From assembly GCF_037042905.1 (NCBI RefSeq), contig NC_087251.1, forward strand, positions 33,048,001-33,112,000: a stretch of DNA of 64,000 bases, in the 5' to 3' direction. Made by a program: the position numbers and the translations under genes. Under the pieces are notes generated by a model. That model ran no database searches. It was not told the origin of the DNA and worked only from the letters and a program-made list of their open reading frames with translations. Below, piece after piece: positions 14,011 to 59,813 of the stretch (its first letter is position 1; the number at the start of each line of letters is the position of its first letter). The DNA comes from Lytechinus pictus. Taxonomy: Eukaryota.

Positions 14011-16070
14011 AACTTTATCATGAAAGTATTTTCTGGTAGTAAGTAAATAATTTCCATTTACCATAATTTTTTCAATTCTATTTTTTTATGACATTAATAT
14101 TCAACATTTGAACTACGGAAATAAACATGATTTTCATTTGATTCAATGATTGTATTTTGTTTTGGTCCAATTATGCTTAAGTGTCCAATATGTGGGCACT
14201 TTACTCTATTTGTATCATAAAGACAAGAAAGTAAAAAAATCGATTGAGCCCTGTCGGGGGGATTTTGCATTGTTAACCCCCTAATGGCGGCTGCACAATC
14301 GTGAGCCGTCTGTGTAGGAGAATTTATTAAAAATGTTCAAAAACTCCTCGAAACAGACGGCTGCCAGCTGTCTCTAATAACCCCAGCCCACCCATGGGTT
14401 CATTACATACCGCGTGCGAAGGAATATCAAATGCACGCGACACATGCAACTCTTTCATGGGATTTTGCCCAATTAAAAGATACAAACACTAAAATAAAAA
14501 TGTTCACATTGTGCTATCAGCTATGACACCTACCAAATGATCTGAGGTAACTTTGCTGACTTCTCTGCGCATTTTGTTCCAAAGAAATTGTATTTTTCTC
14601 TTGATCTTCACGTAGATGCCTGTAGAAAAGCGACAAAATCAACTTTTTGCCTAAAGAGGGCGCGCAATTATCTTCAAATCAAAGATACTACATAGAAAAG
14701 ACTACGCACAAAAACTATTTTACATGTAAATTGATGCAAAGCATTACGTGAAGTCAGCAAAGTGTCCAATCTTTTTATTGTAAAGACTTTGGTGGAATGT
14801 TCGTTGACAAACGGTAGCACTGCTGGCTTTGCCCAAGGCATGTAGAATTTTCTACTTTTTTGTTTAATTTGTCATTGCTTTGAATGTTTTCCAAAAAGTA
14901 TTATCGTCAGCAAAAAATTATCTAAAGAGTATGTTTTTCATGTTATTGCATTTATTGATGTCTATATTTTATCAAACAATCATGGGAATTTTGCATACAA
15001 TGAATCTAGAATCTAAAGTTAGACTTTAGCTTTTTCTAGTTATAAAATACAGACGAGCAGAATTAAGGTTGTGCATTGTATTAGCGCCACCAACGACCTT
15101 CCTTTTATTTCCGTGGAAGAGACATGCGAAGTCACTTTCCTGGCCGAGGTAAGCGATTTTGCTCTTTTTTATGTGCTTTTTATATTTAAAAAAATATACA
15201 AATTGAAAATGGAAAGCCCGTCAGGCGTCATCTGAAAAAGCCCTGGTGAGTAGCGGAATGAGTTTCGCTACCATCATGACCATTATTCCCGTTATGAAGC
15301 GATGTTAACAGACTAAAATATCCACTGCACGCTGCGTACACACGTTTGTAGTGCAAGGTTAGTATAGTATACTAATCTCGCAATATGTGTGAGTGACCCC
15401 AGCCAAGCTTAGTTAGGCCCAGCGAATACTAAACCGACTTAGTCTTGAGGACTCCATGATGATGTCTTTTTAAAATCCTTTGACGTATACTTCTTCATCA
15501 TTGGAGTCTTGAACCCCGCCCATATATGTATAAGAGACCCAGGTAAACAAAGATGGATTCTTTTCATAAAAGAATCACGTAAAATAGGTTGATTTTATTA
15601 ATTTCTACACCTTCCTACGCCTAATGCGTAGGAAGGTTTTAAAAAATGGTCCCTAAAAATGTTTAAAAATTAAGGTTTCTTACCAGACTGATGTCGTGTA
15701 GATCCCTCGATCCACATGTACACAACGCAAATACAATAGTGTCGACCCTTGAACAGCTTATTATGACGAACATCCGATTAGCGATGCCGGTTTGAAGAAC
15801 AATTTAGGCCATGTAAAAAAAGATAGTAATTGATCGTTCGGGTTTTTTTAGAGCAGTGATGAGGGAGGTCCTTACTATTTGCTATCTTTAATACTATTTT
15901 TTTTAAAAACAAGGAGGCATTTTCTCTGCCCGTTTTTTGACATCAGTGATGAGGGAGGTCCTTACTATTTACTATTTTTTTGCTATTTTTTATTCAAATG
16001 ATTGTCAGGCCATGTCAAGCTTGAATTATGTGATCGATGCATGCTCAATATTAATAATAAATGAGTAGAA

Positions 16071-16107
16071 ATATATATATATAGATATATATATATATAT
16101 ATATATA
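16071..16107. repeat. (TA)n microsatellite
   Basis: ATATAT run with one G interruption. Confidence 0.95.
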
Positions 16108-16220
16108 CAATTGATTGGAAATCTATGGAAAATGTATTATGCGACAAAAATCTATTGATGTATTACTGATGTATACCGGTACTGTATTGTAAAACAAAAT
16201 GTTCATGTCAAGTGAATGAT

Positions 16221-16808
16221 TTAAACGGATGGTCCGGGCTGAAAATATTTATATCTTAATACATAGAGTAGAATTCACTGAGCAAAATGCCGAAAATTTC
16301 ATCAAAATCGGATAATGAATAATAAAGTTATTGAAGTTTAAAGTTTAGCAATATTTTGTGAAAACAGTCGTCATGAATATTCATTAGGTGGGCCGATGAT
16401 GTCACATCCCCAATTTCCGTTGTCTTATGTTATTAAATAAAATCATAATTTTGTCATTATTTCATACTTGTGTGAATAATGTCTCCCTTATAATGAAATA
16501 AGTTGCAGCAATAAATATCTAATGCACTAAATCAGTTGTCAATCCAATTTTTCTAGTTCTTGGAGGAAAAAATTTGAATAAACCCAATTTCATATAATAA
16601 AATACAAAAGAACAAGTGGAGATGTGACATCATCAGCCAACCTAATGAATATTTATGACGACTGTTTTCACAAAATATTGCTAAACTTTAAAATTCAATA
16701 ACTTTGTTATTTGTTATCCGATTTTGGTGAAATTTTCAGCATTTTGCTCAGTGAATTCTACTCTATTTATTAAGCTATAAATATTTTCAGCCTGGACCAT
16801 CCCTTTAA
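16221..16808. mobile_element. Kolobok-like MITE with long TIRs, same family as 114-683
   Basis: TTAA-ACGGATGGTCCGGGCTGAAAATATTT ... AAATATTTTCAGCCTGGACCATCCCT-TTAA, with ~185-bp complementary arms. Confidence 0.85.
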
Positions 16809-17936
16809 ACATTATTTTATATTAATATATATGTAAATAAGGGTAAAAAATGCATGGGGGGGTCATTTTTATTACCATGGAGCCATGTTCAGTTTTCCAG
16901 AGCCAATCTCTTTTCTAGCTCTGGGCATGGTTTCGCATCGCAGTTTCCAGCTGCTTGTATATTCGTTTACATAATGTTTAATACTGTTAAATTTTTATTC
17001 ATTTTTTAAACTGTTAATTGTTCACATGTTTATCATTTCAATATTTGTAACTGTTAAAGTGTTAGATCTATTTAATAACTAATTTTTACAATTGTCCATC
17101 AAATTGAATAGCTCAAGGAAGAATGAAGTTTATCAAATTTGAACAGAATTGGCACTTACTGGAATCCCATTAATGATTTTCAATCTTGATAATGAATAAC
17201 CCACTTGAAATTATTTTTTGAATATTCAATGCATTGCCTGCTGACGTTAGAAAACTCGCCAGAAAATTCAATTCATTTCACAAATTCACATGTCGCGCCA
17301 GCAGTCAATCACATCATCCCAGCACACATGCATTCATCAATCACCGTAGCACACATCGAAGTACAGGCGCTATCACTCACCAAAAAACCCCGCTGAAATA
17401 CAAATTACGTCATTAAAATTGATTTTATAATATCTGCGCCATATTTCCAAAGCACGCGACGGATTAGTTCAGATTCAGGAAACGGGGTCCCTGAAAATGC
17501 ACTAAAAATGAAGAAATCCGTGATCTTTTCCGAGTTTGCAAACTTCTTCTTCTTATGTTGGTTTGAGTGGCGATTAGTCATATTTGACTATTGTCGCCAT
17601 ACTTTATTTTCTGGCTAATTTATGATGGTATCTTCAAAATTCCAATAAAAAACCAAATCAGAATTTTTTTCTTTCTTGCAGTTACGGCGATATCGGACTT
17701 TGCAATTGTTTTTTAATTTTAGTATTTGTGAAATAATAATTTTTATCTATAAATTGTTCTTCAAAACGGCATCGCTAATCGGATGTACGTCATACATAAG
17801 CAGTTCAAGGGTCGACGCTATTGTATTTGCGTTGTGTACATGTGGATCGAGGGATCTACACGACATCAGTCTGGTAAGAAACCTTAATTTTCTAACATTT
17901 TTAGGGACCATTTTTTAACACCTTCCTACGCATTAG

Positions 17937-18745
17937 TAGGGACAGTGATTTTCCGCGATCGCGGAAAACGGACGGAATTCACGGAAAGGGCCTTTTGAAA
18001 CGGAAAGTGGCATTTCAAACGGAAAATCACGGAAAACGTATTTTCCCTCAAAATACACAGAATAGCAACAGAAATTACTCCAAAATCACAGCAAAATGAG
18101 AATATTAAATGGCCAAAAACCCCCAGAAAACACGATCTCACTTCGCTACTATCATGACAATTCACACATTGTGACTGCACTCGACATCAGCACACTCGTT
18201 TGTACCCCGCACCGTACCCGTACCCGGCCGGCCGGATTGGGCTTCACATGCACACATATCGTTCAACTACATGTACACGGTCGTGTGTTGCTGCCCTCTA
18301 CGTTTGAAGATGTAACAGCACGATATCGTGGTCTTAAAATCCAAGATGGCGGATTGGGGAAAAGCCGTTGACTGATGATAACGATGTCCAAAAACCCCCA
18401 AAATTATCGATGAAATATCATTTCACCGTGAAATAATGCTAATAATATGAAAGGTGAGGATGTATGCATGCAAAATGGGTGTGTAAAAATATTTTATGCA
18501 CCCGCATAGATCCGATTAGAACGGATTTTATTGTGTTGTTGGTACAGTAGCAGATACAAATTTTGACCAGTGCGAGTGTGCGTGTTGTGATTTTGCTATT
18601 CAATGTGTAAACGGAATTGTCACTTTTCCGTGTGTACAAAGTTTATGGGGAAACGGAATTTCCGTTTTCTGACATGCTGAAACGGAATTTGAGATTTTCT
18701 GAAACGGAAAAGGCAATTTTTTGAAACGGAAAATCACTGTCCCTA
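17937..18745. mobile_element. hAT-like MITE with 6-bp TSD
   Basis: Perfect 19-bp TIR TAGGGACAGTGATTTTCCG. CATTAG is duplicated at 17931-17936 and 18746-18751. Many subterminal ACGGAA motifs. Confidence 0.85.
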
Positions 18746-18760
18746 CATTAGGCATAGGAA

Positions 18761-20237
18761 TAGTCTTGAGGACGCAATGATGATGACTTTTAAAATCCTG
18801 TCATATACTTCTTCATCATTGACGTCTTGAACAGGCCTTCATAGACATGTAAGAGAACGAAGTAAACAAAGATGGATTTCCCTAGGAAATCCATCTTTTC
18901 ATAACAGAATCGCGTGAAATACGTTTATTTTATTAATTTCTACACCTTCCTACGCCTAATGCGTAGGAAGGTTTTAAAAAATGTTAGATAAAAATGTAAA
19001 AAAATAAAGGTTTCTTACCTAACTGATGCCGCGTAGACCCCTCAATCCACATGTAAACAACGGAAATACAATAGCGTTGACCCTTGAACCGCTTATGTAT
19101 GACGTACTTCCGGCTAGCAATGCCGATTTGAAGAACAATTTATAAATAAAAATTATTTTACAAATACTAAAATTTATTCGTAATTATAAATAATTTTCAG
19201 TATACCAATTATTTATAATTACGTAATAAATTTTATTATTTATAAAATAATTTTTATTTATAAATTGTTCTTCAAAACGGCATTGCTAGCCGGAAGTACG
19301 TCATACATAAGCGGTTCAAGGGTCAACGCTATTGTATTTCCGTTGTTTACATGTGGATCGAGGGGTCTACGCGGCATCAGTTAGGTAAGAAACCTTAATT
19401 TTTTTACATTTTTTCTAACATTTTTTAAATAAAATAAACGTATTTCACGCGATTCTGTTATGAAAAGATGGATTTCCTAGGGAAATCCATCTTTGTTTAC
19501 TTCCTTCTCTTACATGTATATGAAGGCCTTTTCAAGACTCCAATGATGAAGAAGTATGTCAATTTTTTTTTAAAAAGACATCATCATGGAGTCCTCTACC
19601 TCAGGCGATGTTCGTGCAGGCTCCACTCCACTTCACTACCGCTACACTACGCTCCACCTACCCGAACATCGGGACAGTGAACTCGATCGGATATTCCTAG
19701 TCACAAAGGTGGGATGGCAATCATGGTTATCGTAAAAATTAAAGAAAAAAAATATAACGAGGGATATGAATGACTTAATATCTTACTCTACACCCATATT
19801 TCACTCCGTGTCCATCCTCCGGTTATCCTCAAAATTGGTGATTTTGGGCCAGTATCTTTTTCCTTACACGTATTATTCACGGCCGATTTCAAAACATTGC
19901 ATGCGATTGGTCGCTGATCGATTGCGATGTTTTGAAATCGGCCGTGAATAATACGTGTGAGGAAAAAGATACTGGCCCAAAATCACCAATTTTGAGGATA
20001 ACCGGAAGATGGATATGGAGTGAAATACGGGTGTAGAATAAGATATTAAGCTATTTATCTGTCTCGTTATATTTTTTAGGGTAATTTTTACAATAAACCA
20101 TCATTTCATCCCACCTTTGTCACTCAGTATATCCGAAATGGATCACCGTCCCGAAATTCGGGTAGGTGGAGCGTAGTGTAGCGGTAGTGAAGTGGAGCCT
20201 GCACGAACATCGCCTGAGGTAGGAGTCCTCAAGACTA
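18761..20237. mobile_element. Foldback element B (second copy of family A), inserted into the right arm of A
   Basis: TAGTCTTGAGGAC ... GTCCTCAAGACTA. Arms of about 430 bp pair around an AT-rich centre at ~19200. The right end is interrupted by 19597-20221. Confidence 0.85.
19597..20221. mobile_element. Palindromic 625-bp element with 9-bp TSD
   Basis: TACCTCAGGCGATGTTCGTGCAGGCTCCACT ... AGTGGAGCCTGCACGAACATCGCCTGAGGTA. GGAGTCCTC occurs at 19588-19596 and 20222-20230. Arms pair to a centre near 19910. Confidence 0.88.
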
Positions 20238-21045
20238 GCGTAAGACTAAGTCTAAGAAGACCGTGTAGAAATTAATAAAATCAACCTATTTTACGCGATT
20301 CTTTTATGAAAAGATGGATTTCCTAGGGAAATTGGCATTATCGTGGTTTATGTCACCAGTCCATTCACTGCCGTTTATTTCGACAGCGGTGGTGACATCT
20401 TTCCACTCCCATCAGTAGAGGCGCACGGCCAATATTGGAGACTATCTCCAATGTGGGAGATTATCTCCAATATCAGAGACTTTTGTAAAGAATTTTGGTA
20501 TCCAATTTTAGAGACAGTCTCCAGTTTTGGAGTCCAATTTCCTTTGTTTACATTTGCTGCAAAAGGATTACCTTGGCGGCAAATAAAAATGTGATAAGCA
20601 GATTCCTCATTAAAAAGGCCAAATTCGCTATTGTGCCCAAGCGCCATTAAAACTGCTCAGCCCAGTGAAAATTCTTATCGCTAGACGTGCGTAAGAGCAT
20701 GTGCGACCGGTGTCACACATGACCGCACAATAACAAAGCTCAGTCAGCGGGATATCGGCGTTCAGTGAAGTGGCGTGTTAATGGGTATTTCAGCTGTGCG
20801 AGAGAGGGGCGGGGATTAGGGATTGGGGGGGGGGGGTGAAGGGGCACTAAAATATATGAAATCGGCGGGTTTTCAATAAAATACTATGTGCATCGTATTT
20901 TCGTTTTCTTTTTGTGTTTTCTGTATGATACATGGTGGGTGGATTTATTCCTCATTCATTCATTCCATCCAATTTATTCATCATACTGCACATTTCATTT
21001 CATATCATATTACATAACACTGTTTTACTAACCTTATTTTTTCTG

Positions 21046-21116
21046 TCCTTGATGGGAATCGAACTCGAACCTTTTGATCTGCAGTCCAGCATCGTAGTCA
21101 GCACGCCACATGAGAT
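21046..21116 (-). pseudogene. Degenerate tRNA-like sequence (CTGCAGA loop, Cys-like)
   Basis: Minus strand reads GTGGCGTGCTGACTACGATGCTGGACTGCAGATCAAAAGGTTCGAGTTCGATTCCCATC. A B-box-like GTTCGATTCC is present but the stems pair poorly. Confidence 0.45.
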
Positions 21117-21971
21117 GAGCTGACAGCCGAAACTGGTTTAGCGCTCAAGTCGTACGGAGGTTTCCCCGGCGGCAGTTAGCAGGCCAGGGAATCAACGATC
21201 CGTGATTTAATTAATTAGAAAATATATATATTTAAGGATCCAGGGGCTATAGATAATGGTACCAATAATTCCAAACAGGATTTTGTTATTTTTTTCACTT
21301 CGTTTATATTATCGCTATGTATTTTAACACGATGTGCGTTTACTATTGAGTATATTGAGTCACCTGAAATAACACCCGGAACTTTTCTCTGTTTAGGCAA
21401 CAGGGGGCCTAAACATGGAACAAAAAACTCACGCAACTAGTTTGCACTTGATGTTCGTAGTCGGCGTGTAGGCCTAAAACTTTATTTTAACATATATATA
21501 GCTTCCTTTTTTTCATTCTAAACTCCCAAGTTATCCCCTCTACAGCAAACATCATGTCGCTATCGGTCCGCCAATATACGATCTTCTCGGATATTTTAAA
21601 ATAAATGTGGCATTTTGGTAGGCACGGCAAAATTGAAAAAAAAAGTATGCACAAGAAATTGTAAATAATTTCATATACTCACTTTTGCGTTATCCTTCTT
21701 GGTTATATATAAATGCCCCGTTATATTGAATTTTAACCTCCTTCACTCCTTCCGCCAAATTATTCCAAGTCAACAAATTTCCTCATTTTTTTTTCGCCCG
21801 GCAAGCTCATCAATCATCTCTCTCATTAAACCTTTCTTTCTTCACTCTAATCCTCTCAAACAATCCTCACTCTAATCCTCTGCGAAAAGTTGCGCCCTCC
21901 ATGTCAATCGTGCCCCACTGACATCAAGATGTGTCTTGCCGCATCTCGCACATAATGCATAAACTTTTATG

Positions 21972-24900
21972 CATGATTTTATATATTCATGAACTTTCAC
22001 TTTATGCTGTATTTTTATGTTGTTTCTCAATTTTCCTCCTTCGCGTTATTGCTTTATTCCGTAATTGTTAAACTCTATATAGGGCATTTTATTATGTCCA
22101 ACATTTTTGCGTATCTTTTCTACTCTTCCATCGTCACCCTATCATAAATGGATTTTGTCAATGTTAGCTTATTTTTATTTTCCTCAAGAAAGAGCAAGAC
22201 GGACTATTAAAGATACAGATGTATATTCCAAAGGTGATTAGCTACAAATACGGAATAAAGGAAAAACATATGTTAAAACGCAATTTGATTTTTTTGTGGG
22301 GCAAATTGATTAAGGTGTTAGTATAGTGACAAACTTCACTAAATACGGGATAAAGCTTATAGAGAAAACGGAAAACTTGGTGAGCATAGGGACGAATCAA
22401 CCGAGATTCTAATAATTACTATTGACCGGAGGGCGGGAAAAGTGGTGTTCTGGGTTTGAAATGTCTGTCTGGGCGGGGGGTAGAGCGAAGGAAAAGTATA
22501 TAAGGCAACAAAAATGGGAGGCATATTCGGGTGAGAGTATAAAATCTTCAACAAAATACGTAAAAACCGATATAGTAAAGTTGAAACGCAATAATATATA
22601 TATATATTTTTTTTTTTTGGGGGGGGGGCATAATTATTTAGGTGCTAATAAAGAGTGACAATTAAGCTTCACCAAAACACGGAATAAAGTAATAAAGAAA
22701 AGTTTGTGGGCATAAAGTACTAATGAATGATCGAGCCAAGATTCTTAATTCTCTATTGCTTTAGTCCGTATCAATTTGATGCAGTATAGAGTGACTGCAT
22801 AAAAAATATACAGAATAAAGCAATACAGAAATGTTGGCATATTAAGGTGCTGGTATAAAGTGACAAACTTATCAAAATACGGAATAAAGCGATATAGAAA
22901 ATTTTGAACACAATTTAATTTTCTGTGGGTATATTAAGGTGCTAGTATAGAGTGACAAACTTCATAAATATACGGAATAAAGCAATATAGAAAAGTCGGT
23001 GGGCATCTTAAGTTGCTAGTATACAGGCCCAAATTTCTTGAAATATGGAATAAAGCAAGAGAGAAATGTTCTCATTTAATTGATTCCTCAAAAATTGAAT
23101 ATGTTATTTTTATACAATTGTTTTACTAGTGATGATTCTGATTTTAATGTTATTGATATCGAATTTATTCACTATTTGTATATAGAACCTAAGTTACACT
23201 TTTATCTTTTTGTATATATTGTTATTTCATTTTAACAGGACCATGTTTAAAAACAGTGAATCTGAGCTTGTTATCCTGTATAAAGATATTTAAATAAATA
23301 AATAAATTTGTTATATTTGTTTATAGTCTTCATTCTTTATGGTGTATATTGCTTTTATTACGTGTCTCTGTGTCTTTTTTTTTCTTTTTTTCATCTGTTC
23401 ATGATTTTATTTATTCATGAACTTTCACTTTATGCTGTATTTTTATGTTGTTTCTCAATTTTCCTCCTTCGCAATATTGCTTTATTCCGTAATTGTTAAA
23501 CTCTATATGGGGCACTTTATTATGTCCAACATTTTTGCGTATCTTTTCTACTCTTCCATCGTCACCCTATCATAAATGGATTTTGTCAATGTTAGCTTAT
23601 TTTTATTTTCCTCAAGAAAGAGCAAGACGAACTTTTAATGGTACAGATGTATATTTCAAAGGTGATTAGCTGCAAATATACGGAATAAAGGAAAAACACA
23701 TGTTAAAACGCAATTTGATTTTTTTGATGGGCAAATTGATTAAGGTGTTAGTATAGTGACAAACTTCACTAAATACGGGATAAAGCTTATAAAGAAAACT
23801 TGGTGAGCATAGGGACGAATCAACCGAGATTCTAATAATTACTATTGACCGGAGGGCGGGAAAAGTGGTGTTCTGGGTTTGAAATGTCTGGCTGGGCGGG
23901 GGGTAGAGCGAAGGAAAAGTATATAAGGCAACAAAAATGGGAGGCATATTCGGGTGTTAGTATAAAATCTTAAACAAAATACGTAAAAACCGATATAGTA
24001 AAGTTGAAACGCAATAATATATATATATTTTTTTTTTGGGGGGGGCATAATTATTTAGGTGCTAATAAAGAGTGACAATTAAGCTTCACCAAAATACGGA
24101 ATAAAGTAATAAAGAAAAGTTTGTGGGCATAAAGTACTAAGTGATGATCGAGCCAAGATTCTTAATTCTCTATTGCTTTAGTCCGTATCAATTTGATGCA
24201 GTATAGAGTGACTGCATAAAAAAAATGAAATAAAGCAATACAGAAATGTTGGCATATTAAGGTGCTGGTATAAACACAGTGACAAACTTATCAAAATACG
24301 GAATAAAGCGATATAGAAAATTTTGAACACAATTTAATATTCTGTGGGTATATTAAGGTGCTATAGTATAGAGTGATAAACTTCATAAATATACGGAATA
24401 AAGCAATATAGAAAAGTTGGGCATATTAAGTTGCTAGTATACATGCAGGCCCAAATTTCTTGAAATATGGAATAAAGCAAGAGAGAAATGTTCTCATTTC
24501 ATTGATTCCTCAAAAATTGAATATGTTACTTTTATACAATTGTTTTACTAGTGATGATTCTGATTTTAATGTTATTGATATCGAATTCATTCACTATTTG
24601 TATAGAACCTAAGTTACACTTTTATCTTTTTGTATATATTGTTATTCCATTTTAACAGGACCATGTTTAAAAACAGTGAATCTGAGCTTGTTATCCTGTA
24701 TAAAGTTATTTAAATAAATAAATAAATTTGTTACGTTTGTTTATAGTCTTCATTCTTTATGGTGTATATTGCTTTATTACGTGTCTCTGTGTTTTTTTTC
24801 TTCTTTTTTTCATCTGTTCATGATTTTATTTATTCATGAACTTTCACTTTATGCTGTATTTTTATGTTGTTTCTTAATTTTCCTCCTTCGCAATATTGCT

Positions 24901-25825
24901 TTATTCCGTTATTGTTAAACTCTATATAGGGCATCTTATTATGTCCGACATTTTTGCGTATCTTTTCTACTCTTCCATCGTCACTCTATCATAAATGGAT
25001 TTTGTCAATGTTAGCTTATTTTTATTTTCCTCAAGAAAGAGCAAGACGAACTTTTAATGGTACAGATGTATATTCCAAAGGTGATTAGCTACAAATACGG
25101 AATAAAGGAAAAACATATGTTAAAACGCAATTTGAATTTTTTGATGGGCAAATTGATTAAGGTGCTAGTATAGTGACAAACTTCACTAAATACGGGATAA
25201 AGCTTGTAGAGAAAACTTAGTGAGCATAAGGACGAATCAACCGAGATTCTAATAATTACTATTGACCGGAGGGCGGGAAAAGTGGTGTTCTGGGTTTGAA
25301 ATGTCTGGCTGGGCGGGGGGTAGAGCGAAGGAAAAGTAAGGCAACAAAAATGGGAGGCATATTAGGGTGTTAGTATAAAAACTTCAACAAAATACGTAAA
25401 AACCGATATAGTAAAGTTGAAACGCAATAATATATATATATATTTTTTTTTTTGGGGGGGGCATAATTATTAAGGTGCTAATAAAGAGTGACAAGCTTTA
25501 CCAAAATACGGAATAAAGAAAAGTTTGTGGGCATAAAGTACTAAGTGATGATCGAGCCAAGATTCTTAATTCTCTATTGCTTTAGTCCGTATTAATTTGA
25601 TGCAGTATAGAGTGAGTGCATACAAAATATACAGAATAAAGCAATACAGAAATGTTGGCATATTAAGGTGCTGGTATAAAGTGACAAACTTATCAAAATA
25701 CAGAATAAAGCGATATATAAAATTTTGAACACAATTTAATATTCTGTGGGTATATTAAGGTGCTAGTATAGAGTGACAAACTTCATAAATACACGGAATA
25801 AAGCAATATAGAAAAGTTGTTGGGC
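21972..25825. repeat. Tandem triplication of a ~1.42-kb unit (third copy partial)
   Basis: CATGATTTTAT(A/T)TATTCATGAACTTTCAC recurs at 21972, 23400 and 24819, each followed by colinear, highly similar sequence. Confidence 0.92.
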
Positions 25826-27560
25826 ATATTAAGGTGATAGTATAGAGTGACAAGCTTCATGAAAATACGGAATAAAGCAATATTGAAGAGTTGTTGGGCA
25901 TATTAAGGTGCTAGTATAGAGTGATGAACAAGCCAAGATTCTAATAATTCGTGTTGGCCCGGAGGGCGAGAAAAGGGGTTTTCTTTTGGGGGTATATAAG
26001 CAGCGGACAGGGGGATTGAAATGTCTGAGGGGGGATAGAGCGAAAAGAGAAAAGTAGGAAAGGCATATTTTATTCAAAATTCTTTTGGGCATATTAAGGT
26101 GCTAGTATAGAGTGACAAGCTTCATGAAAATACGGAATAAAGCAATATTGAAAAGTTGTTGGGCATATTAAGGTGCTAGTATAGAGTGATGAACAAGCCA
26201 AGATTCTAATAATTCGTGTTGGCCCGGAGGGCGAGAAAAGGGGTTTTCTTTTGGGGGTATATAAGCAGCGGACAGGGGGATTGAAATGTCTGAGGGGGGA
26301 TAGAGCGAAAGAGAAAAGTAGGAAAAGCAAATTTTATTCAAAATTCTTTTGGGCATATTAAGGTGCTAGTATAGAGTGACAAGCTTCATGAAAATACGGA
26401 ATAAAGCAATATTGAAAAGTTGTTGGGCATATTAAGGTGCTAGTATAGAGTGATGAACAAGCCAAGATTCTAATAATTCGTGTTGGCCCGGAGGGCGAGA
26501 AAAGGGGTTTTCTTTTGGGGGTATATAAGCAGCGGACAGGGGGATTGAAATGTCTGAGGGGGGATAGAGCGAAAAGAGAAAAGTAGGAAAAGCAAATTTT
26601 ATTCAAAATTCTTTTGGGCATATTAAGGTGCTAGTATAGAGTGACAAGCTTCATGAAAATACGGAATAAAGCAATATTGAAAAGTTGTTGGGCATATTAA
26701 GGTGCTAGTATAGAGTGATGAACAAGCCAAGATTCTCATAATTCGTGTTGGCCCGGAGGGCGAGAAAAGGGGTTTTCTTTTGGGGGTATATAAGCAGCGG
26801 ACAGGGGGATTGAAATGTCTGAGGGGGGATAGAGCGAAAAGAGAAAAGTAGGAAAGGCATATTTTATTCAAAATTCTTTTGGGCATATTAAGGTGCTAGT
26901 ATAGAGTGACAAGCTTCATGAAAATACGGAATAAAGCAATATTGAAAAGTTGTTGGGCATATTAAGGTGCTAGTATAGAGTGATGAACAAGCCAAGATTC
27001 TAATAATTCGTGTTGGCCCGGAGGGCGAGAAAAGGGGTTTTCTTTTGGGGGTATATAAGCAGCGGACAGGGGGATTGAAATGTCTGAGGGGGGATAGAGC
27101 GAAAAGAGAAAAGTAGGAAAAGCAAATTTTATTCAAAATTCTTTTGGGCATATTAAGGTGCTAGTATAGAGTGACAAGCTTCATGAAAATACGGAATAAA
27201 GCAATATTGAAAAGTTGTTGGGCATATTAAGGTGCTAGTATAGAGTGATGAACAAGCCAAGATTCTAATAATTCGTGTTGGCCCGGAGGGCGCGAAAAGG
27301 GGTTTTCTTTTGGGGGTATATAAGTAGCGGACAGGGGGATTGAAATGTCTGAGGGGGGATAGAGCGAAAAGAGAAAAGTAGGAAAGGCATATTTTATTCA
27401 AAATTCTTTTGGGCATATTAAGGTGCTAGTATAGAGTGACAAATTTCATGAAAATACGGAATAAAGCAATATATAAAAATTGTTGGGCATATTAAGGTGC
27501 TAGTATAGAGTGACAAATTTCCTGAAAATACGGATTTAAGCAATATAGAAAAGTTGTTGA
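25822..27560. repeat. 265-bp tandem array, six near-identical copies plus decaying ~71-bp subunits
   Basis: Period of 265 is visible in the repeated ORF starts (26358, 26623, 26888, 27153, 27418). Each unit has two GGGCATATTAAGGTGCTAGTATAGAGTGA motifs. Confidence 0.95.
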
Positions 27561-27780
27561 AGTTCATGAAATACGCAATAAAAACGATCGAATGTCGACC
27601 TTTAGAAATAGCACCGAAATACTTCACATCCCCGATCCCCTAAAAAAAAAAAAACCATGTTGAGGTTCGATCCACAAACGCTTAGATGCCTACGTATTAT
27701 GCACTGCGCCGCGCTCACCTATTCACTCGTCGTAGTGAAATTAAGATTTATATATACCGCGTAAAGCTTTACCAACAAAA

Positions 27781-27896
27781 AAAAATCCGGGACGGGCGCA
27801 AAACGCACACATATGAACACACGGGTACAGTGCTTCGCGAAGCGAAGCACTGTGTGTGTTCATATGTGTGCGTTTTGCGCCCGTCCCGGATTTTTT
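27781..27896. repeat. GC-rich hairpin capped by GCGAAGC
   Basis: AAAAAATCCGGGACGGGCGCAAAACGCACACATATGAACACAC ... ACAGTGCTTCGC-GAA-GCGAAGCACTGT ... reverse complement. Confidence 0.9.
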
Positions 27897-29485
27897 ACTT
27901 AGATGAGCGGTATTAATGGCGGCTGGGCATATTAGCTAATATGGCCATTAAAAATTACCCCTTTTCACCGTCTACTTAAAAAAAAAATTCACCGCCTACT
28001 TTTGTTTTGATAAGGATTTTTGTCGTCAATCACACACAAAACAAATGGGCTTCTGACCTCAGTGAGACAAAATTTTGGGTGGAAAAAATCATGCTTTTGT
28101 TGGTGTTGTTTCTTTTGTCCTTTTGCAAAGCAAGTCTCCAATGTGGGAGATTGTCTCCCCTATTGGAGAGAGTCTCCCATATTGCTCTACTGCCCATTGA
28201 CTTTGTACACAACGAGCGCACACACACGAGAAGAGAGGTGACAAATTTCACGATAAGGCCGGGAAATTCATCTTTGTTTACCTGGGTCTCTTATACATAT
28301 ATGGGCGGGGTTCAAGACTCCAATGATGAAGAAGTATACGTCAAAGGATTTAAAAAAGACATGATCATGGAGTCCTTAACTAAGAGTAAGACTAAAACCG
28401 GCTATGCCACAAAGCTCCGGGGGCGCGGCAGCGGAGCTCCCCGCCTAGGCTTGCAGCTGCAGCAGCTAGCGGCGACGCAAACCTGGTTTCCCCTTTCTCT
28501 AGCCTCATCTAATGTCAAAATAAGGCTTAGACCTTACATAAAAGCATTAATATGTTTTTAATATCGTAAGATAACACATAGGCCATATCACATTCTTTCA
28601 AAATACTCACACATTCATATTACACATGAAGTTTCGCAATTCTTTCTGGAAAGGAGAGGTCAGTAAGTCTCGAGCGAGCAGAGCTGAATTGAGATATTGT
28701 TATGATGTCGCCGAAGTTTCCAATTGCAGAACGAAAAAAAAAGTTGTTTTTGTTTTAGCTTATATTCAGCAGTGAATATTTGTGCCAAGAAAAGAAAAGA
28801 ATACTGATAATCGTGGTCTAATGAATTATGCGTCAATTTTGTATTTCAGTAACGGAAATTCCATTCCTTTTCACTCAAAGTGCAAATTTAAAAGTGTGTG
28901 AACCAAATGATAGATGCCTTCTTTTAGGTTCTAACAAGTTCCCTTTTAATAGAAAGTCCAATCCGATAAGGGCCCTTTAAGTTAGTCTGGTTTTAGCCCA
29001 GATCGGTCACAGAGGTGGCTATTTTCAATGGACCATTCCATCGCACTACTCTGTGGCACTACTCCGTCCTCCTAGTACCAAATCACAAGCTTGATAGTTT
29101 CTGAACAATACAAAAACACTTACATCCAGCAAAGGCTCCCCATGGCAATCAGAGGCGCGGAACCGGATGGGGGCTTCAGTCTCCTCTTTTTTTTAAATAA
29201 ACGTATTTAAAAACGTAAAAAAGGTTCATCTGATCTTATATTTGCATAGTAAGCCCCCAGGGGAAAAAATCAAAACCGTTCTGCAGCCCCATGGTGATGA
29301 ATATAGTATATGTCTTTCTTTTTTTTTATACTTTTTTTTATTATTTAGTTCCACTTTGTTTACATCAGATTTAGCATGGACCTACTCATGGTTTTAGCAT
29401 ATATGCAGTATTATTAGCATTCGCAGTATGCTCATAAAAAACCTCCTTGGTTAAATATATTTCTCTGAAATTTGGGCAGATGTTT

Positions 29486-29700
29486 GGCGCGATAGCTCAG
29501 TCGGTAGAGCGGGGGATTCGTATTCCGGTGACCCGGGTTCGATTCCCACTTGGTGCGCTAGTGCCCTTTGGTAAGGCATTAATCCTCATTACCAGGTCCT
29601 TCGGAGAGGACCTTAAGCCGTCGGCCCTCTGGTTGCTTGCTTACAAGCCTTCATGCTTTCTTAGCAATCAGGTAAAAAATCCCCACCAAACCACCACCAA
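29486..29700 (+). mobile_element. tRNA-derived SINE
   Basis: A box TAGCTCAGTCGG and B box GGTTCGATTCC, followed by a non-tRNA body GTGCCCTTTGGTAAGGCATT...GAGGACCTTAAGCCGTCGG. No terminator directly after the head. Confidence 0.8.
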
Positions 29701-36711: not shown

Positions 36712-39700
36712 CCTTCTTCTTCTGTTGATTTCCTCCAGTCCTGGAGAACTGCGAGATCCAGTGGATACGCAGAAAAGTGGTTTGATAAATATGTATAGAG
36801 ACAAAAGAGCAAGGCTCAGAAGGAGGTTGGAATAAAGTGTATCACAACACTGTCTAGTTGTTGTTCACCAACAGAGAACGTTTGACATGAAGCTCATGCA
36901 AGAAATGAAAGGAGTAGTAATGAAGTTGGGGAGCTGAGGCAACAGGTATACTAGTTGCATTAGTGTCCAATTCAAGAAGTACAACATTAGTAACAGCTGC
37001 TGCGATTTGTGACGCAGGAGTTATGGCAAGATCATGTTGGAGATAGGGAGGAAGGTTGGCGAGGAACCTTTTCCTTTCATCCGCATAGAGGGTACATTCT
37101 CCTATAAGGTGGGTTACAGTCTCATCCTTGACATTGCAATAGCAGGTGCTATCATGACGCCTTCCAATCCTGGTGAGACGTGTGTTGGTAGCATAGACAC
37201 CACAAAGAAGTTGACTCTTCAGGGATAAGGCTTGGCGATGACTATGAGAGTTTAGCCTTGACGGGAGCAGAGTTGTCCTCTGGGTGCGGTCTAGGTGACT
37301 AAGTAGCTGAAGTGAGGATTTGGCTGCTAGAGCGGCTTCTGTTTCTTCCTCGCTATAGTCAAGAACACGGCTGTAGAGATGAGTCTCTTCCATTGCTTGT
37401 ACTGTATAGGGGAGTTGAGAAGATCATTGAAGGAAGGTAGGTCGTACTTGTTGAGGAAGGACTGGAACATTTGGACAGTCTTGGAGCTGGGGTGCTGGCA
37501 CATAACGTGAAGAAGAAGACGATACTCTAGCCTGCAAGGGTCAAGGTTCACCAGCTTCCCCAGAAGTCTAAGGCGTTGGATGGCTACGATATCAGATACA
37601 GCCGGGAGGCCAGTGAGGATGTGGACTGATTCGTTGGCAGTAGAACGAGGAAGACCTAGTAGGGTTTTAAATAGGGTTATTTGGGCCCTATCTAGGCGAT
37701 CTAGGGCTGCCTTGGTCAGGTGGATGACCTCTGAACCACACAGCATCCTAGGTATGCAATATCTCTCCCAGAATGATGCCATGACTGTGGGGGTGAGTCC
37801 CATATGGAATGCTCCCACACCTGTAAGAGCATAGAGTGTCTTGTTGCCGGTAAATATCATCTTGGAAGTAGCATCAAGTTTGTGTGAAGAACGGGTGATA
37901 CCCAGATGAGGGTGCTTGTCTACGAGAGGTATGGTCCTAGAACCAAATTGCCATGCCTCTGAGGTTTGGGGACCAGATCCAGTGATGGTGACGGCACTCT
38001 TAGACGGATTGATGGTATAGCGCCACCTGCAGGAATAGTCAAAGACAAGTTGAAGCATACTGTTCAGTTCTTTTGCGGAGGTAGCCACTAGTGCAACGTC
38101 ATCTGCGAGTACAAGAATGCCTGTGTATATGGATTGGGTGAAAGCTCCGAGGCCTGACGACTGCAGGCTGTTGATCAGACCATCGATGAAGGCCAAATAG
38201 AGTAGGGGGAAAGGATTCCTCCTTGTCTTACACCTTGCCTCACAGGAAAGCTTTCACTTATTCTGCCTTTCCACCACACATCAGAGCTAAGATCTTCTTA
38301 CAATTATCTCTTTACAATAAACCAGAGATTACCCCGAACACCAGCCTTGTATAGCTTGAGGAGAAGACCATTGTGCCAAACTGTATCGAAAGCATTGGCG
38401 GCGTCCAAATATGCAATGAATGTGTGCTTCTTATTGCTTTCGATGATGAGATTCAATGTAGCCGCTACCAGTAGACATGAGTGACCTTCCTGGAATCCAC
38501 TTTGAAGCTCATGAGGTATGTTTGACTTATGAAGAGCCTCTTCTAATTCTGGCTTAATGAGGAGTTCTAAGATCTTGCAGAACACAGTAGTGAGAGATAT
38601 ACCCCTGTAGTTCGAAGGATCAGTGGGAGATTTCCACTTTCCTTTATGAATTGGAAGGATTAAGCTGGTCTTGAAGTTGGACGGCATGTGACAGTGGAAT
38701 AGGATTGAGTTGTAAATCTGCACAAGAACAAGACGAGTGATTGGTCCGGAAAACTTTACATGTTTAGGGGAGATGTGGTCTACGCCTCCTGCTTTGCCGG
38801 ATTTTAGCTGGGCAATGGCGATGTTCAGCTGCGAAGATGTGACATGCAGTTGAGTACCTTCGAGTAAAACTTCTGCCTGAGTTACTTCCTCATCCACCTG
38901 GCAGGGAGGGCAGGGGTCAGGATTGGAAAGAGCACGGAAGTATTGCTCCCATCCTTCCAGGAGTTGTTGTCCTGTATGCTTCTTATCAGAGACAATAAGA
39001 GAGTCTGTGTCTGTCCTGATGTTGCTGGGGGATCTGTGCTGCTTGACAAGTTTGCTGAAGAGAAGAGGGTTGTCATGTTTGGAAGATTCCACTTCTTTTA
39101 TGATCTCGTTACGAGTTCGTTGCCTGCTTTGCCGGAGTGACCGTCTGAACATATTCTTGGATTTTTTGTAGGAAATCCAAGCCGTATTTTCCTTACTCCG
39201 AGGGCGACCCTGATCTTTCCAACTCTTCCAATTGACCTTCATTTTTACATACGACTTGTCGACATCTTTGTTCCATTCTGGTTTCCTGTTCCTTGGAGTA
39301 CTAGAGAAGGAGTGAGGTAGGTTTGAGGTAGACGTCTGAACCATGACACTACAAATTGTATCAAGGAGCCGTTCTGCAGTATCTGGCTGTAGAATTCTAG
39401 CTTTGTCTTTGTGCTGAGCCCAGATTTTCCTTCACTGAGCCTCCAGAGGTTGTGTGTAAAGTCTTTCGGTACTTGTAGAATCTAATTTATCCCAATTAAC
39501 TCTGAGTCTCGACTGTTTCTTGCCATAGGGCATTTCACTGGGCTCATGTCGAGGGGTTACTAAGCTGGGGTCGCTGCAAGTGTAAAAGTAGGTCACTCCA
39601 ACAGGGAGGTGATCTGATGTGTTCTTTTGTTCCTCGTTGCAGATGTGAAACTCTTTGAAACAGTGTTCACTAGGAGTTTTGACCAGGACAAGATCGAGGT

Positions 39701-39775
39701 TAGACTTCGTGCATCCATCATAACTGGAATAAGTGTAGACTCCTGGAATATGGAGCAGGCTAATTATTGTTTGTA
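36712..39775 (-). mobile_element. 5'-truncated non-LTR retrotransposon, probably RTE-X clade, frameshifted
   Basis: Endonuclease end (SNLDLVLV..TSDHLPV), W..GRPR motif, RT motifs (NYRGISL, QSGFQ, YLDAANAFDTVWH, LADDVAL) and C-terminal C-x-C-x8-H-x4-C across ORFs 39432-39782, 38304-39344, 37327-38196 and 36854-37393. (GAA)n tail at ~36712. Confidence 0.9.
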
Positions 39776-41423
39776 ACATCATGCATAATGAAAAAAAAAA
39801 GATTGACCACTGACTGTCCTTGTAACTTTTCCCAATGTATTATTTGACTCTTTATACCATGGTTAAGACACCAAAATCAAATCTGTCAGGCAGATATTGA
39901 ATGAAATGTACCAGCGGCCATTTAAGACTCCATTTTGGAAGCCATCTTGGATTTTTCGGCATAATGGACGTCTGCGTGTCATAATTAAGGTCCAAAAATA
40001 TTACTTAACCCTTGAAAACATAGTGTAGACACGATCATATAGGGGGCTTATACTAATCAGTCGGGTCGCGTACGAAATTACTCGGGTTTTGGATTTCGAT
40101 GCTTCTTCTTTGCGATTTTTTACTAATGGTGTCTTCAATGGGACAAACACGCTGGGAAAATAAAATGAAATTGAAATTCGAGTTTCATTTTAAGCCGGCG
40201 AGTGCCTTAAATAAAATGTACTGGATTACTGTTTTAAAATAACAAACAAAGCGAATTTTGACTACTGTTTTAACTTATTCACATTCCCCATATTTGACCT
40301 GATTTCTGTTGAATTTTGTGTACATCCCACATCGTTATCTCCCATTTACTCCAACATGTACTTCTCTCTCCGCACACTTGATTTTGATCGTGAGGTACTG
40401 AACTGAAGTTATTGGTCACAAACACACGAACTTCTAAGGTCTACGGTATCCTTAAAAAGATTCTTGTCCAAGTTGTGTTTACTTTTTTTGCCGTGCTTTT
40501 TACATTACATATATACGCTTCATTATAAATATACGTCGTACATGATTCCTTTTTAATTTCGTTTCATCTTTCTATCGTCGTTTCTTTTCTCTCGATTTAG
40601 CCTCTTGACACCTAACTTGAATTTCATATGAATTTCATGGTTCAGTTAAGCGATCACCCGTCAGCGCCGCCCAAACTCACAATTATCATAACGTTACGCC
40701 TATGGGAAAAATCGTGAATTAGTCGCTTACTATTGCGATAACATAATATCATGTATGAAAATCGCTTTGGCAGAACCAGATCTAAAATCCCCAACATTTT
40801 CTCATCCCCATAATATATTTTTAAATTAATTTTGAAATAACTAAATTTTGTCAATTTTAACATTTCTAAAGTAACATTTTGCTCTATTTCCCCCTTTTTG
40901 TGCGCGATATGTGTGAAATTCGCTTGTTTTTCTCACTTAGGGGGTTTTCATCTCAGTGTTACTTGAAAACGGTAGCAGACGAACCTTTGGTAGCACCGCC
41001 AAAATAAAGAGTCTTACTTCAGCTTTTTTCTGATATAAGGGTCATTTGGATTGGATAAAAGTTCATCCCGTAATTTTCACGTCTAATCAGATGTTCCCTT
41101 ATGCATTGTTCACACAGAGCCGAGTTGGGTGTACGAGTCTCTGCGAGCTTCCGCGAGTTCCAACTCGCGGAAGCTCGGGGGGGGGGGGGGGGAATGGTAC
41201 ATTTTCAGGAAAGTTTGACAGATTAACCAGAGCGCAGTACGAGTCACGAAGAGTTATCAACGAGTAGTACCGAGTACTGCTCGAGTTATTGCGATCTTTT
41301 CTCGAGTTTGGCAGAGTTTACTGAGAGTCTTTTAAGATCTTTATACGAGTAATTCAGCCTTTGATAGGTTGGAATTTTCGTGCATTCTGCTTTTTTCAAG
41401 ATGGATGACCAGATGAACCTCCT

Positions 41424-42428: not shown

Positions 42429-42865
42429 ATGAGCAAGATTGATCCAAATACTCTCGTAGCTGAACTCATCGCCCTGCAGAATCTTGTGAATTGTGAGACT
42501 TTCTTTCTCAAAGACTTTTTAAAACCACTTTATCATGCTTATCCTCACATGTTTATCCTCAAGTAAAATTGGTTATTTTTGTACCACAGAAAAAAGAGTA
42601 AATGTTACTTTTTTATATTTGTTCAATTCATTTGAATAAAAACGTGTGCTTTTTTATTTTAAAGCTTGATAAATCTGTTTCTAAGTTTGCAGCAATTAAT
42701 AATTGAAACCAAGGCCATTATTGAGGGAAATAATTGCATCCAGAATCCTGTAAAGAACAAACAGTCAAAGGTAACACAAAAAGATGAACTGCCGTTTGCT
42801 ATATGATGAATGATATACTTGAAATTAAAACCAATGTCATGATATTCAACATAGTTGAGTTGTTA

Positions 42866-43920
42866 TGTAAGATGTTATCACTCATCATGTCACCTTTATT
42901 CTCAAGTAATATGAAATCATCACTCATCATGTCACCTTCATTCTCATGTAATATGTTATCATCACTCATCATGTCACCTTCATTCTCATGTAATATGTTA
43001 TCATCACTCATCATGTCACCTTCATTTTCATGTAAGATGTTATCATCACTCATCATGTCACCTTCATTCTCATGTAAGATGTTATCATCACTCATTGTGT
43101 CACCTTCATTTTCATGTAAGATGTTATCATCACTCATTGTGTCATCTTCATTTTCATGTATGATGTTATCATCACTCATCGTGTCACCTTCATTCTCATG
43201 TTAGATGTTATTATATCATGTCACCTTCACTTTCATGTAAGATGTTATCATCACTCATTGTGTCATCTTCATTTTCATGTAAGATGTTATCATCACTCAT
43301 CGTGTCACCTACGTTCTCATGTTAGATGTTATCATCACTCATTGTGTCACCTTCATTCTCATGTAAGATGTTATCATCACTCATCATGTCACCTTCATTC
43401 TCATGTAAGATGTTATCATCACTCATTGTGTCACCTTCATTTTCATGTAAGATGTTATCATCACTCATCATGTCACCTTCATTTTCATGTAAGATTTTAT
43501 CATAACTCATCGTGTCACCTTCATTCTCATGTGAGATGTTATCATCACTCATCATGTCACCTTCATTCTCAAGTAAGATGTTATCATCACTCATCGTGTC
43601 ACCTACGTTCTCATGTAATATGTTATCATCACTCATCATGTCACCTTCATTCTCATGTAATATGTTATCATCACTCATCATGTCACCTCCATTCTCATGT
43701 AATATGTTATCATCACTCATCATGTCACCTTCATTCTCATGTAAGATGTTATCATCACTCATCGTGTCACCTTCATTCTCATGTAATATGTTATCATCAC
43801 TCATTGTGTCACCTTCATTCTCATGTAAGATGTTATCATCACTCATCGTGTCATCTTCATTTTCATGTAAGATGTTATTATATCATGTCACCTTCACTTT
43901 CATGAAAGATGTTATCATAT
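42866..43920. repeat. 42-bp minisatellite, about 25 copies
   Basis: Unit GATGTTATCATCACTCATCATGTCACCTTCATTCTCATGTAA, giving 14-aa periodicity in the ORF track. Confidence 0.97.
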
Positions 43921-47256: not shown

Positions 47257-49845
47257 TACTTACTTTACTTTCTGCCCGCTATGCCTCCATTGGCATGTAG
47301 GGCAGCAACGAATGTCCTCCACTTCTGTCGGTCCTGTGCCAAGATCTGTATAGTTCTCCATGTGTGCCTTAGGTGTTTAAGTTCTCCCTCTACTTTTCTG
47401 CGCCATGTGATCTTGGGCCGCCCCCTCTTTCTTCTCCCTTCAGGGGTCCAGTGGAGAGCTACATGGGTGATGTTCTGGGCATCCATTCTAAGAATATGTC
47501 CAATCCATTTCCATCGTCTTCTGAGGATTATGGTTCCCATGTTATCTTGTTTACATCGCGTAAGTTGTTCTTCATTTTTTATTTTATTTGGCCAGAAAAT
47601 TTGAAGGATCTTTCTGAGGCTTTTTGTATGAAAAACTGACAGTTTATGGAGGTCATTCTCCAGCACTCAGATCCATATAGTAGGGTGGAGAGGACACAGC
47701 TTTGATACAGTCTCAGCTTTGTTCTTGTGCTATACTGCTGTGATCTCCAAATTTTGTTCAACATTCTAAATGATATATATGCTTTATTCAGACGGTTTCT
47801 GATGTCATTTTCTGCCCCACCATCACCTGTGACAACGCTACCAAAGGTACTTGAACTCATCTACTGTAGAAACATCTTTCCCATTCACTTGTATTGGTAA
47901 CGGATTTGTGTTATTCAATGTCATTATCTCTGTTTTGTTTTCGTTGATTTTAAGGCCAACTTGTTGGGCATATTCACTCAGCCGTGTCGTCTTTGTTTGC
48001 ATATGCTGGTGTGTATGTGAAAATAAGGCAAGATCATCGGGGATCATCGGCATAGTCGAGGTCTTCTAGGGTGGAAAATATGGACCATTTGATACCTCTC
48101 GGGTGATCTTCGGTAGTTCTTCTCATTACCCAGTCAATGGTGATTATGAAGAGGATTGCAGACATGACACATTCCTATCTAACTCCTGATTTTACTTCAA
48201 ATTTTATGTCACAATTTTCCACGTTGCATGTAAAGTTAGAGTAAAAGCTCTTCATAACTTGGACAATGTCCTTTGGTATCCTATACGAACGAAGTATTCG
48301 CCACAAGCTCTTTCTATGAATGCTGTCGAATGCCTTCTCAAAATCGACAAAGTTGATATACATTTGTCTCTGCCGTTCTGTGCACTGCTCTATGATGTTA
48401 CGCAGTGCAAATATTTGGTCTATGCATCATCTTCCTCTGCGGAACCATGCTTGCTCTTCTCTGAGATGCTGGTCTACTGCACTTGTTATACGGTTCACAA
48501 TTATCTTCGAAAAAATCTTACTAGGAATCGATAAGAGGGTAATTCAACGCCAGTTATTGCAGTTTATCAGGTTCCCTTTCTTTGGAATTTTGACAATAAT
48601 ACCTTCTGACCAGTCATCTGGAATTTGTTTTTTACTCCACACTGATTTAAATAGTGGTTCGAAAAATTCTGCTGTAGCCTCTGGGTGTGCTTTGAATAAT
48701 TCTGCATTTAAGTTGCCATGTCCAAGAGATTTACCATTTCTCAAAGATTTAACGGCAGATACTATTTCCCATTTAGATGGAGGGTTTATGTTCAGATCCT
48801 CTTCTGCCTCTTGGATGACTGCATCGGTTAATGGTGGTGGTCTATTCAGTACTTCACTGAAATGCTCTGCCCATCTAGCATCTCTTTCTGTTTCTGTTTT
48901 AAGAATATTTCCTTGTTTACTAAGAATTGGTGCATCTGTTGCTCCTTTGTTCCTTCCACTGATTATCTTGGTAAGTTTATACACTTTTCCTTGTTCTCCT
49001 TTCTTTGCTGCAGCTTCTGCTTCATCTGCGAGACTATCCAAGTACTTCCTTTTGTCAGTACTTGCTTTTTTCTTTACTTGCTTGTTAGCTTCCTGATACT
49101 GTCGGCTGTATCTCTGTTATAGCCTTTCAGACTTTGAGTTTATGACAAGTTTCTTTATTTCTTTTCGTTTCTTTATTGTTTCCCATGTGTCAGCCGATAT
49201 CCAATCCTTCTACTCCTTCAATCTGTACCCCAGACATGTTTTACTTGTCTCGCTGTATGCTGTCTTGGTTCTATCCCATATATCGTTTACTTCTAGTGTA
49301 ATCAAGATCAGCATGGGTCTGGAACCTGTTCTGTTGTTGGAGTATAAAGGAGTTTCTGACCTTGGGGTCTTTCAGTTTTTCAACATCAAACTGTCTCCTT
49401 CCTGACTTTTTGTTTCCTGATTTTCTTATAGTTTCACTTTAAACGATGCTATAACCAGATAGTGGTCATTGCTGACATCAGCCCCTCTCATCACCTTTAC
49501 ATCAAGGAGTGAACGTCTCCACGTGCCATTTATCATGATATGGTCAATCTGGTTTTTATCTCTGTTGTTAGGCGAAGTCCAAGTAAGTTTGCGAATGTCT
49601 TTATGTGGGAAAATTGTTCCTCCTATGACCAAGTCATTGGCCGCACAAAGGTCGATCAGCCTTTCACCGTTGCCATTCATACTTCCGCAGCCATGTTTTC
49701 CTATAACTTTTTCATGGCTTGTGTTATCATTCCCGACTTTTGCATTCAAGTCTCCCATTATAATTTTCATGTCATGTTCTGGGATTTTACTTAGTTCAGC
49801 TTGTACTCGCTCATAAAAATTATCTTCACCATCATTTGTTGGAGC
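47257..49845 (-). mobile_element. 5'-truncated RTE (BovB-like) LINE with 11-bp TSD, frameshifted
   Basis: APE endonuclease (YAPTN, GDLNAKVG, NGERL, TWTSP, NQIDHI, DHYLV), RT (KKGNL.NC.NWR, FVDFEKAFDSI, GVR) and C-terminal WKWIGHILR..GRRKRGRPK.TW. (TAAG)n tail. ATAAAGTTGCT at 47246-47256 and 49846-49856. Confidence 0.93.
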
Positions 49846-49915
49846 ATAAAGTTGCTAGCATTGGTATTTTTGTGAGCCCCAAAGTATGCAGATTCCATTT
49901 GATTAATTTAAGAAA

Positions 49916-59485: not shown

Positions 59486-59557
59486 GTCTCTGTGGTCTAG
59501 TGGTTAAGGCACCGGCGTTCAAAGCTGGGGGCCCGGGTTCGATTCCCGGCAGATAAT
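59486..59557 (+). pseudogene. tRNA-like cloverleaf (Glu-like body, TCA in anticodon position) followed by T7
   Basis: D stem GTCT/AGGC, anticodon stem CCGGC/GCTGG with loop GTTCAAA, T stem CCGGG/CCCGG with loop TTCGATT. Acceptor stem pairs 5 of 7. TTTTTTT at 59557-59563. Confidence 0.55.
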
Positions 59558-59663
59558 TTTTTTCGGCATCACCAATTTTTCCAAAGGGTGGATAGCTCTA
59601 CCATTGTTCTCTTCATTCATTTTTTTACAATATATTCTATATATATATATTCGATTTCTACAG

Positions 59664-59813
59664 GTCCAGTACTTGCGTACTGCTATCGAAGAACCCACGG
59701 CGTGTTCCGGCGATGTCTTCTGGTGACAGGTGCAATATTTGCAGCAGGAGGACTCCTTCTGGTATCCATGGTAACCAATGGTAAAGAATTGGCTGTCTGC
59801 TTATCAGTTTCTG
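59664..59813 (+). CDS. SLC16/MCT-like protein, coding exon 2
   Basis: Acceptor TTTCTACAG|, 150 nt, phase 1-1, GPVLAYCY...RRCLLVTGAIFAAGGLLLVSM...LSVS, donor G|GTATGT. Confidence 0.85.

Follow-up and report, generated by a model that had tools for sequence, protein, structure and literature searches.

A non-coding transposon of Lytechinus pictus with three tiers of internal tandem repeats and a subunit probably related to its right end

The insertion and its surroundings

The window analysed here is a 64-kb stretch of Lytechinus pictus DNA, and at 20617-27946 it carries a TIR-bounded element of 7330 bp, non-coding as far as detected. GGCC is present at both ends, and the arms (left TIR, 20617-20674, plus strand; right TIR, 27889-27946, minus strand) are identical at 43 of the first 55 positions. 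The similarity stops at approximately 58 bp, and the arms are free of the subunit that forms the internal repeats. The element is flanked by a perfect 8-bp TSD, ATTAAAAA, with the left copy at 20609-20616 and the matching right copy at 27947-27954, both on the plus strand. The initial annotation of this DNA, which described GGCC-ended TIRs of about 55 bp and a perfect 8-bp TSD, is hence borne out, with the TIRs being imperfect. A 9-bp TSD, formed by adding the preceding C, is formally possible and is disfavoured, since the symmetry of the GGCC ends would be lost.

The element was inserted into another, abundant small element, a nesting overlooked by the initial annotation. This host is approximately 440 bp long, has CAGTAG ends, and is split on the plus strand into a left half (20413-20616) and a right half (27955-28192), with its own 5-bp TSD, CCCAT, at 20408-20412 and 28193-28197. 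It has 19-bp subterminal repeats and very high contig depth in all four runs considered below, and its own empty site is seen as loose ends at 20412 in three of these four. The host is in turn surrounded by non-coding elements inserted into one another: at 15438-20330 and 28194-28400 another foldback-like family is present in several nested copies, and the arms of this family at 15445-15559 and 28265-28379 are 97% complementary.

Elsewhere in the window we noted a 42-bp minisatellite at 42865-43918 (25 copies, several frames open) and an MFS/monocarboxylate-transporter-like gene at 59501-61548, whose exon 60445-61545 matches a protein of Lytechinus pictus with 100% identity. On the minus strand, LINE-like reverse transcriptase/endonuclease frames in a fragmented state were recognised by eye at 37327-39839 and 48544-49854. 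ARAGORN called tRNAs at 29487-29558 and 59486-59557 (Thr, SeC-like), which probably are heads of tRNA-derived repeats.

Contigs of four of the 13 runs (X1, X3, X8 and X11) were mapped on 20230-23399, an interval comprising the left flank, the left arm and the first 1.42-kb unit of the array; the small-share runs X2, X4-X7, X9, X10, X12 and X13 were left out. Run X3 is labelled as another organism (organism B), and uncovered bins in X1 and X3 were not counted as absence. At least 16 X3 contigs exit the window at 20616, and their consensus has 28 of 30 letters in common with the right flank, the TSD being present there in a single copy; at least one X1 contig links 20616 to the other (far) arm of the host element. 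These single-copy sites represent empty sites and most likely belong to other copies of the host; orthology to this locus is not implied. Conversely, record 26 of X8 (964 nt) starts to match at exactly 20617 after 468 non-fitting bases, with one of 496 letters differing, and record 11 of X11 ends at 20617, with eight differing letters and seven gaps over about 1400. As the empty site and the contig breaks fall at exactly 20616/20617 in independent runs, the left boundary of the element is fixed.

The foreign flank of X8 record 26, together with the contig end in X11, hints at copies at more than one locus, as seen at the left end. The X8 contig, a single one with a depth of 4.19 that again shows the left end only, suggests that the element occupies one or more further insertion sites and has moved recently, the alternatives being a chimera or another insertion at the boundary. 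Among the contigs listed for the four runs over 20230-23399, none bridges the window's own junction or represents a second complete copy. The empty site and the second flank support the identification of the element as a non-autonomous TIR transposon. The insertion is real, and the element is likely a cut-and-paste transposon of the Merlin or Mutator type, driven by a transposase made elsewhere.

Between the left TIR and the array lies a unique left arm of 1.35 kb (20675-21971), also overlooked by the initial annotation, with no detectable coding and no protein match. The longest stop-to-stop frame in the whole element is 96 aa, and 18 read-through frames, taken from the left arm, from the first 1.42-kb unit and from 27146-27946, contained no Pfam family, in agreement with the earlier description of the element as non-coding. 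A 73-aa frame of the left arm had no match among 24 candidates (longer proteins only), and one 258-residue read-through frame, which is one of six and covers part of the left arm, had none among 1.84 billion proteins. On the minus strand of the arm there are two GTGAGT donor-like sites (21682 and 21432) with acceptor-like pyrimidine runs, perhaps belonging to a decayed spliced transcript; by eye, they yield no consistent spliced frame. A decayed tRNA-like stretch was also seen by eye on the minus strand at approximately 21050-21110, where neither ARAGORN nor Rfam made a call. One X3 contig entry joins 20634 to 20745.

At the other side of the element, a near-perfect hairpin of 117 bp (27780-27896), missed by the initial annotation, overlaps the inner edge of the right TIR. 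Its 43-nt arms match at 100%, its fold has z = -18.65, matched by none of 200 shuffles, and no TSD of its own was seen. The GAA loop is closed by C-G, as in a DNA mini-hairpin type of unusual stability. Rfam gave 12 matches, mostly of the hairpin to miRNA models, all of them below the gathering score, and an assignment to an RNA family was rejected.

Architecture of the repeat array

The repeat array occupies 21972-27559, that is, 76% of the element, and has three layers: subunits of approximately 74 bp, 2.7 copies of a 1.42-kb unit, and 6.4 copies of a 265-bp unit. All of its parts are described on the plus strand. The first 1.42-kb unit (21972-23399, 1428 bp) consists of inverted subunit remnants, a unique centre, diverged 74-bp subunits, a GC-richer module B and a retroposon-like tail; the inverted remnants and the tail had escaped the initial annotation. 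The second unit (23400-24818, 1419 bp) is 97.2% identical to the first one over ungapped columns. The third (24819-25819, 1001 bp) is 96.2-96.8% identical to both and is partial, as it runs into the 265-bp array, so that of the three 1.42-kb units described earlier the repeat itself stands, with two full copies instead of three.

The 265-bp array (25820-27513) contains the six units noted before, at 6.4 copies by our count. Each unit is formed by one 74-bp subunit, a 34-bp subunit head and a module B of approximately 155 bp, which matches a part of the 1.42-kb unit at 73-83%. The copies are 98.5-100% identical; copies 2, 3 and 5 are the same, and there are copies with distinct variants. The array ends with the last two 74-bp subunits (27411-27559), delimited by the tandem-repeat period and the subunit HMM.

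The tandem and higher-order analysis that the initial annotation had called for gives tiers of 74 bp, 265 bp and 1.42 kb, and identity also falls in three tiers: the subunits are visibly diverged, the 1.42-kb units are at 96.2-97.2% (ungapped columns), and the 265-bp copies at 98.5-100%. Two details of the earlier description have to be changed. The period of the subunit, given as about 71 bp, is 74 bp as measured, and the units are not all built from a subunit beginning with GGGCATATTA: at E<=0.01 the subunit HMM accounts for 35-46% of each unit, rising to 42-49% at E<=10, and in the 1.42-kb units only one of eight near-matches to the shared motif is exact.

The tail of the 1.42-kb unit is a fragment of an interspersed repeat with an A-rich 3' end (23071-23307, plus strand, the 5' limit being approximate), likely a retroposon tail; its second copy is at 24493-24730. 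Depth is raised over the 3' part of the fragment (23198-23303) in all four runs, and the contigs have staggered loose ends on its 5' side, before 23213-23279, and A-rich ones on its 3' side, behind 23306-23313. These observations suggest a retroposon tail that was duplicated along with the block.

If the tandem junction of the 1.42-kb unit is present in the samples, contigs should either join its end to its start or break close to the latter. This is what was observed: one X3 contig has a joint 23346->21972 that spans the junction, and contigs of both X8 and X11 break at 21984-22013. The version of the left arm in X3 is more diverged (36 differing letters and 18 gaps in about 520 letters; 16 and 4, respectively, in 313). 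As this run, labelled as organism B, has both the arm and the unit junction, the arm and the array look long associated. BLAST of the element against the rest of the window found no part of it elsewhere, and likewise no subunit or 265-bp arrays independent of the element.

The subunit, the right end and the superfamily

The motif GGGCATATTA is present at 27925 and in 15 places within the arrays, with no other exact match in the window. Its presence in the right TIR at 27925-27934, reported earlier, is confirmed, and the exact match between the subunit and the TIR extends over 11 bases (27924-27934). Among 22 near-matches to this 11-mer in the array, all 14 from 25821 on are exact, compared with one of eight in the older 1.42-kb units. 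The right TIR terminates in an imperfect palindrome of 22 bp (20/22), to which the subunit head can be aligned with 19 of 21 bases identical and a single gap of 4 bases.

The outcome of the significance tests depended on how much of the TIRs was considered and on how matches were scored. An 11-mer shared with either whole TIR was found in 16 of 3000 shuffled subunits and in five of 758 genomic windows. With the test restricted to the terminal 25 bp, a restriction chosen after seeing the match, the respective numbers were three of 5000 and none of 758. Gap-tolerant scoring against the whole TIRs was not significant (247 of 3000 shuffles), and neither was the comparison of the subunit with the left TIR alone (583 of 2000 shuffles), where nine of the 11 motif bases are kept. 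On this comparison of sequences, a relationship between the subunit and the right end of the element is probable, and the link to the TIR would be larger than reported earlier.

The assignment to a superfamily is less straightforward. Merlin is defined by GG ends, a TSD of 8 or 9 bp and a DDE_Tnp_IS1595 transposase; imperfect TIRs are known in it, TIR length ranges from 24 to 462 bp, and internal tandem repeats are common (PMC8101967). The element has 5'-GG termini and a TSD of 8 bp, the latter determined at one site and of a length common to MULE and hAT. The Mutator-like element Muta1 of Aedes aegypti has a TSD of 8 or 9 bp and a GG-starting, imperfectly palindromic terminal motif (PMC5499845). 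The TIRs of MULEs usually exceed 100 bp and contain repeats of 12-15 bp (PMC5499845 and PMC3169594). Of the features of Mutator-like foldback elements, the TSD falls within the expected 8-10 bp, whereas the TIRs are approximately 58 bp long and their arms lack the subunit, instead of exceeding 100 bp and being built of short subterminal repeats.

Thus the earlier label "Merlin-like" describes the ends only: the GG ends and the 8-bp TSD do fit Merlin, and they fit Muta1 equally. DDE_Tnp_IS1595 is absent from the 18 frames, in which no Pfam family was detected; this is expected of a non-autonomous member and hence neither proves nor excludes Merlin. Exact-pattern scans for the TIR and the subunit in metagenome contigs, and for the subunit in viral contigs, gave no match, in collections that need not hold host DNA. 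There being no transposase in the element to settle between Merlin and Mutator, we give Merlin an even chance and the Mutator/foldback group about one in three, and leave a small remainder for any other superfamily.

Origin of the array

As a whole, we consider it fairly probable that the internal repeats grew in place from a subunit derived from the right end, within a non-autonomous transposon of the Merlin or Mutator type. In the proposed course, approximately 25 bp copied from the palindromic right end, and enlarged by an insertion of 4 bp, would have become the head of the ~74-bp subunit; the similarity is observed, and this direction of copying is the one we favour. The subunit would then have multiplied and diverged in both orientations and gained module B, all of which is recorded in the array itself. 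A retroposon tail probably came to lie among the subunits, and the 1.42-kb block including this tail would have been tandemly duplicated, as is directly visible for the block and its duplication. The 265-bp block would have been amplified very recently, to judge by the near-identity of its copies, likely by unequal exchange or slippage. Finally, the element would have been mobilised, presumably in trans by the transposase of a partner, and inserted into the abundant small element; the insertion is seen in the window, and the single X8 contig suggests that the mobilisation was recent. We propose that the array is a low-copy passenger. It is possible, on sequence similarity, that the subunits serve as extra putative transposase-binding sites.

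The latter possibility leads to the first alternative, in which the shared motif is a putative transposase-binding site, its amplification was selected for mobility, and the element spreads satellite DNA genome-wide. In its favour, the subunit head matches the right end significantly, the youngest array matches it best (see the exact 11-mers from 25821 on), and inverted subunits occur on the left side. In addition, a larger number of subterminal repeats in Muta1 resulted in more binding and excision (PMC5499845), and the same scenario has been proposed for Tetris (PMC4079207). Against it, the left TIR keeps only nine of 11 bases, the subunit head nearest to the right TIR motif is approximately 440 bp away from it, and the nearest inverted one is more than 1.3 kb from the left end, while in Muta1 the repeats are situated inside the 145-bp TIR. 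The summed contig depth in a subunit-rich bin, relative to the left arm, is about 20, 27, 50 and 32x in X1, X8, X11 and X3, respectively; this depth is not a copy number, and since the ratios are close to the 22 subunit heads per copy in the window, they weakly hint at a small family and no large free satellite. We regard this alternative as unlikely. An extended form of it, where the 74-bp subunit would be a decoy copied from the palindromic end, the rounds of amplification (74 bp, 1.42 kb, 265 bp) add putative landing sites and are selected for mobility, and the family is still active, seems improbable to the same degree.

A second alternative, which we hold to be rather less likely again, is that the array is an independent captured repeat, and its match to the right TIR arose by chance or by later gene conversion from the array to the TIR. 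Such an origin would agree with the match being confined to the right TIR, with the non-significant gapped test on the whole TIRs, and with the composition of the array, where the subunit makes up less than half of each unit and a foreign retroposon-like tail is already present. Nevertheless, the exact-word and terminal tests were significant, nothing else in the window matched the element by BLAST, and the presence of both the arm and the 1.42-kb junction in the more diverged organism-B run makes the association look old. An inflation of the repeat count by assembly error, or a coincidental TIR/TSD pair, is very improbable: the 265-bp copies 2, 3 and 5 are identical and no listed contig spans the element, but the copies bear distinct variants, and the left boundary is secured by the empty site together with contig breaks that fall at exactly 20616/20617 in independent runs.

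Growth in place from the right end, the reading we prefer, has published counterparts. One of them is Tetris, a foldback element of Drosophila virilis, which is also non-autonomous and has an internal tandem repeat related to the TIR: its TIR-220 has 37 bp in common with the outer TIR, from which it was proposed to derive, its copy number varies by unequal exchange, and extra, putative transposase sites were suggested (PMC4079207). The Tetris repeats are a part of long TIRs and have grown into kb-size satellite arrays, whereas here the TIRs are approximately 58 bp long, and the array is central, one-sided, three-tiered and known only inside the element.

Merlin members (Merlin-2_DR, Merlin-N5_DR, Sy.k_F1/F2; PMC8101967) share with our element the GG termini, the 8-bp TSD, a TIR length within range, the imperfect TIRs and the internal tandem repeats. 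The element differs from these members by the lack of a DDE_Tnp_IS1595 remnant and of an identified partner with these TIRs. The listed rows of the S1 Table in PMC8101967 include repeats of 79 bp x12.5 and x9.7 in Merlin-2_DR and 163 bp x3 or x4 in Sy.k_F2; compared with these rows, our element has more layers, with repeats of 74, 265 and 1420 bp nested in one another and a captured tail. Muta1 (PMC5499845) and Tm1 of Meloidogyne (PMC3169594) resemble the element in having repeats tied to the ends and unequal in number at the two ends. The 8/9-bp TSD is found in Mutator-like foldback elements of both papers, and the GG-starting palindromic terminal motif in Muta1; unlike MULE as described there, the element has short TIRs, and its 74-bp repeats lie well inside.

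Among the papers listed by a literature search on sea-urchin or Lytechinus DNA transposons and Merlin, with Repbase being outside its scope, none is evidently devoted to this element. The expansion of TIR-derived repeats inside a transposon, which may also seed satellites, is already in print, for Tetris of a fruit fly (PMC4079207) and for Merlin, as in Merlin-2_DR of the zebrafish (PMC8101967), the authors of the latter paper proposing that Merlin spreads proto-satellites. As the principle is published for both, what is added here is a further case, from a model sea urchin. The case is dateable, shows how tiers of repeats pile up within a mobile element, and has its three-level nesting confirmed by empty sites; it would matter more if the length of the array affected mobility or if free derived satellites existed. 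If the subunits were indeed decoy copies of the end, and an autonomous partner was found, the element would provide a live sea-urchin system for the transposase-driven birth of higher-order satellites.
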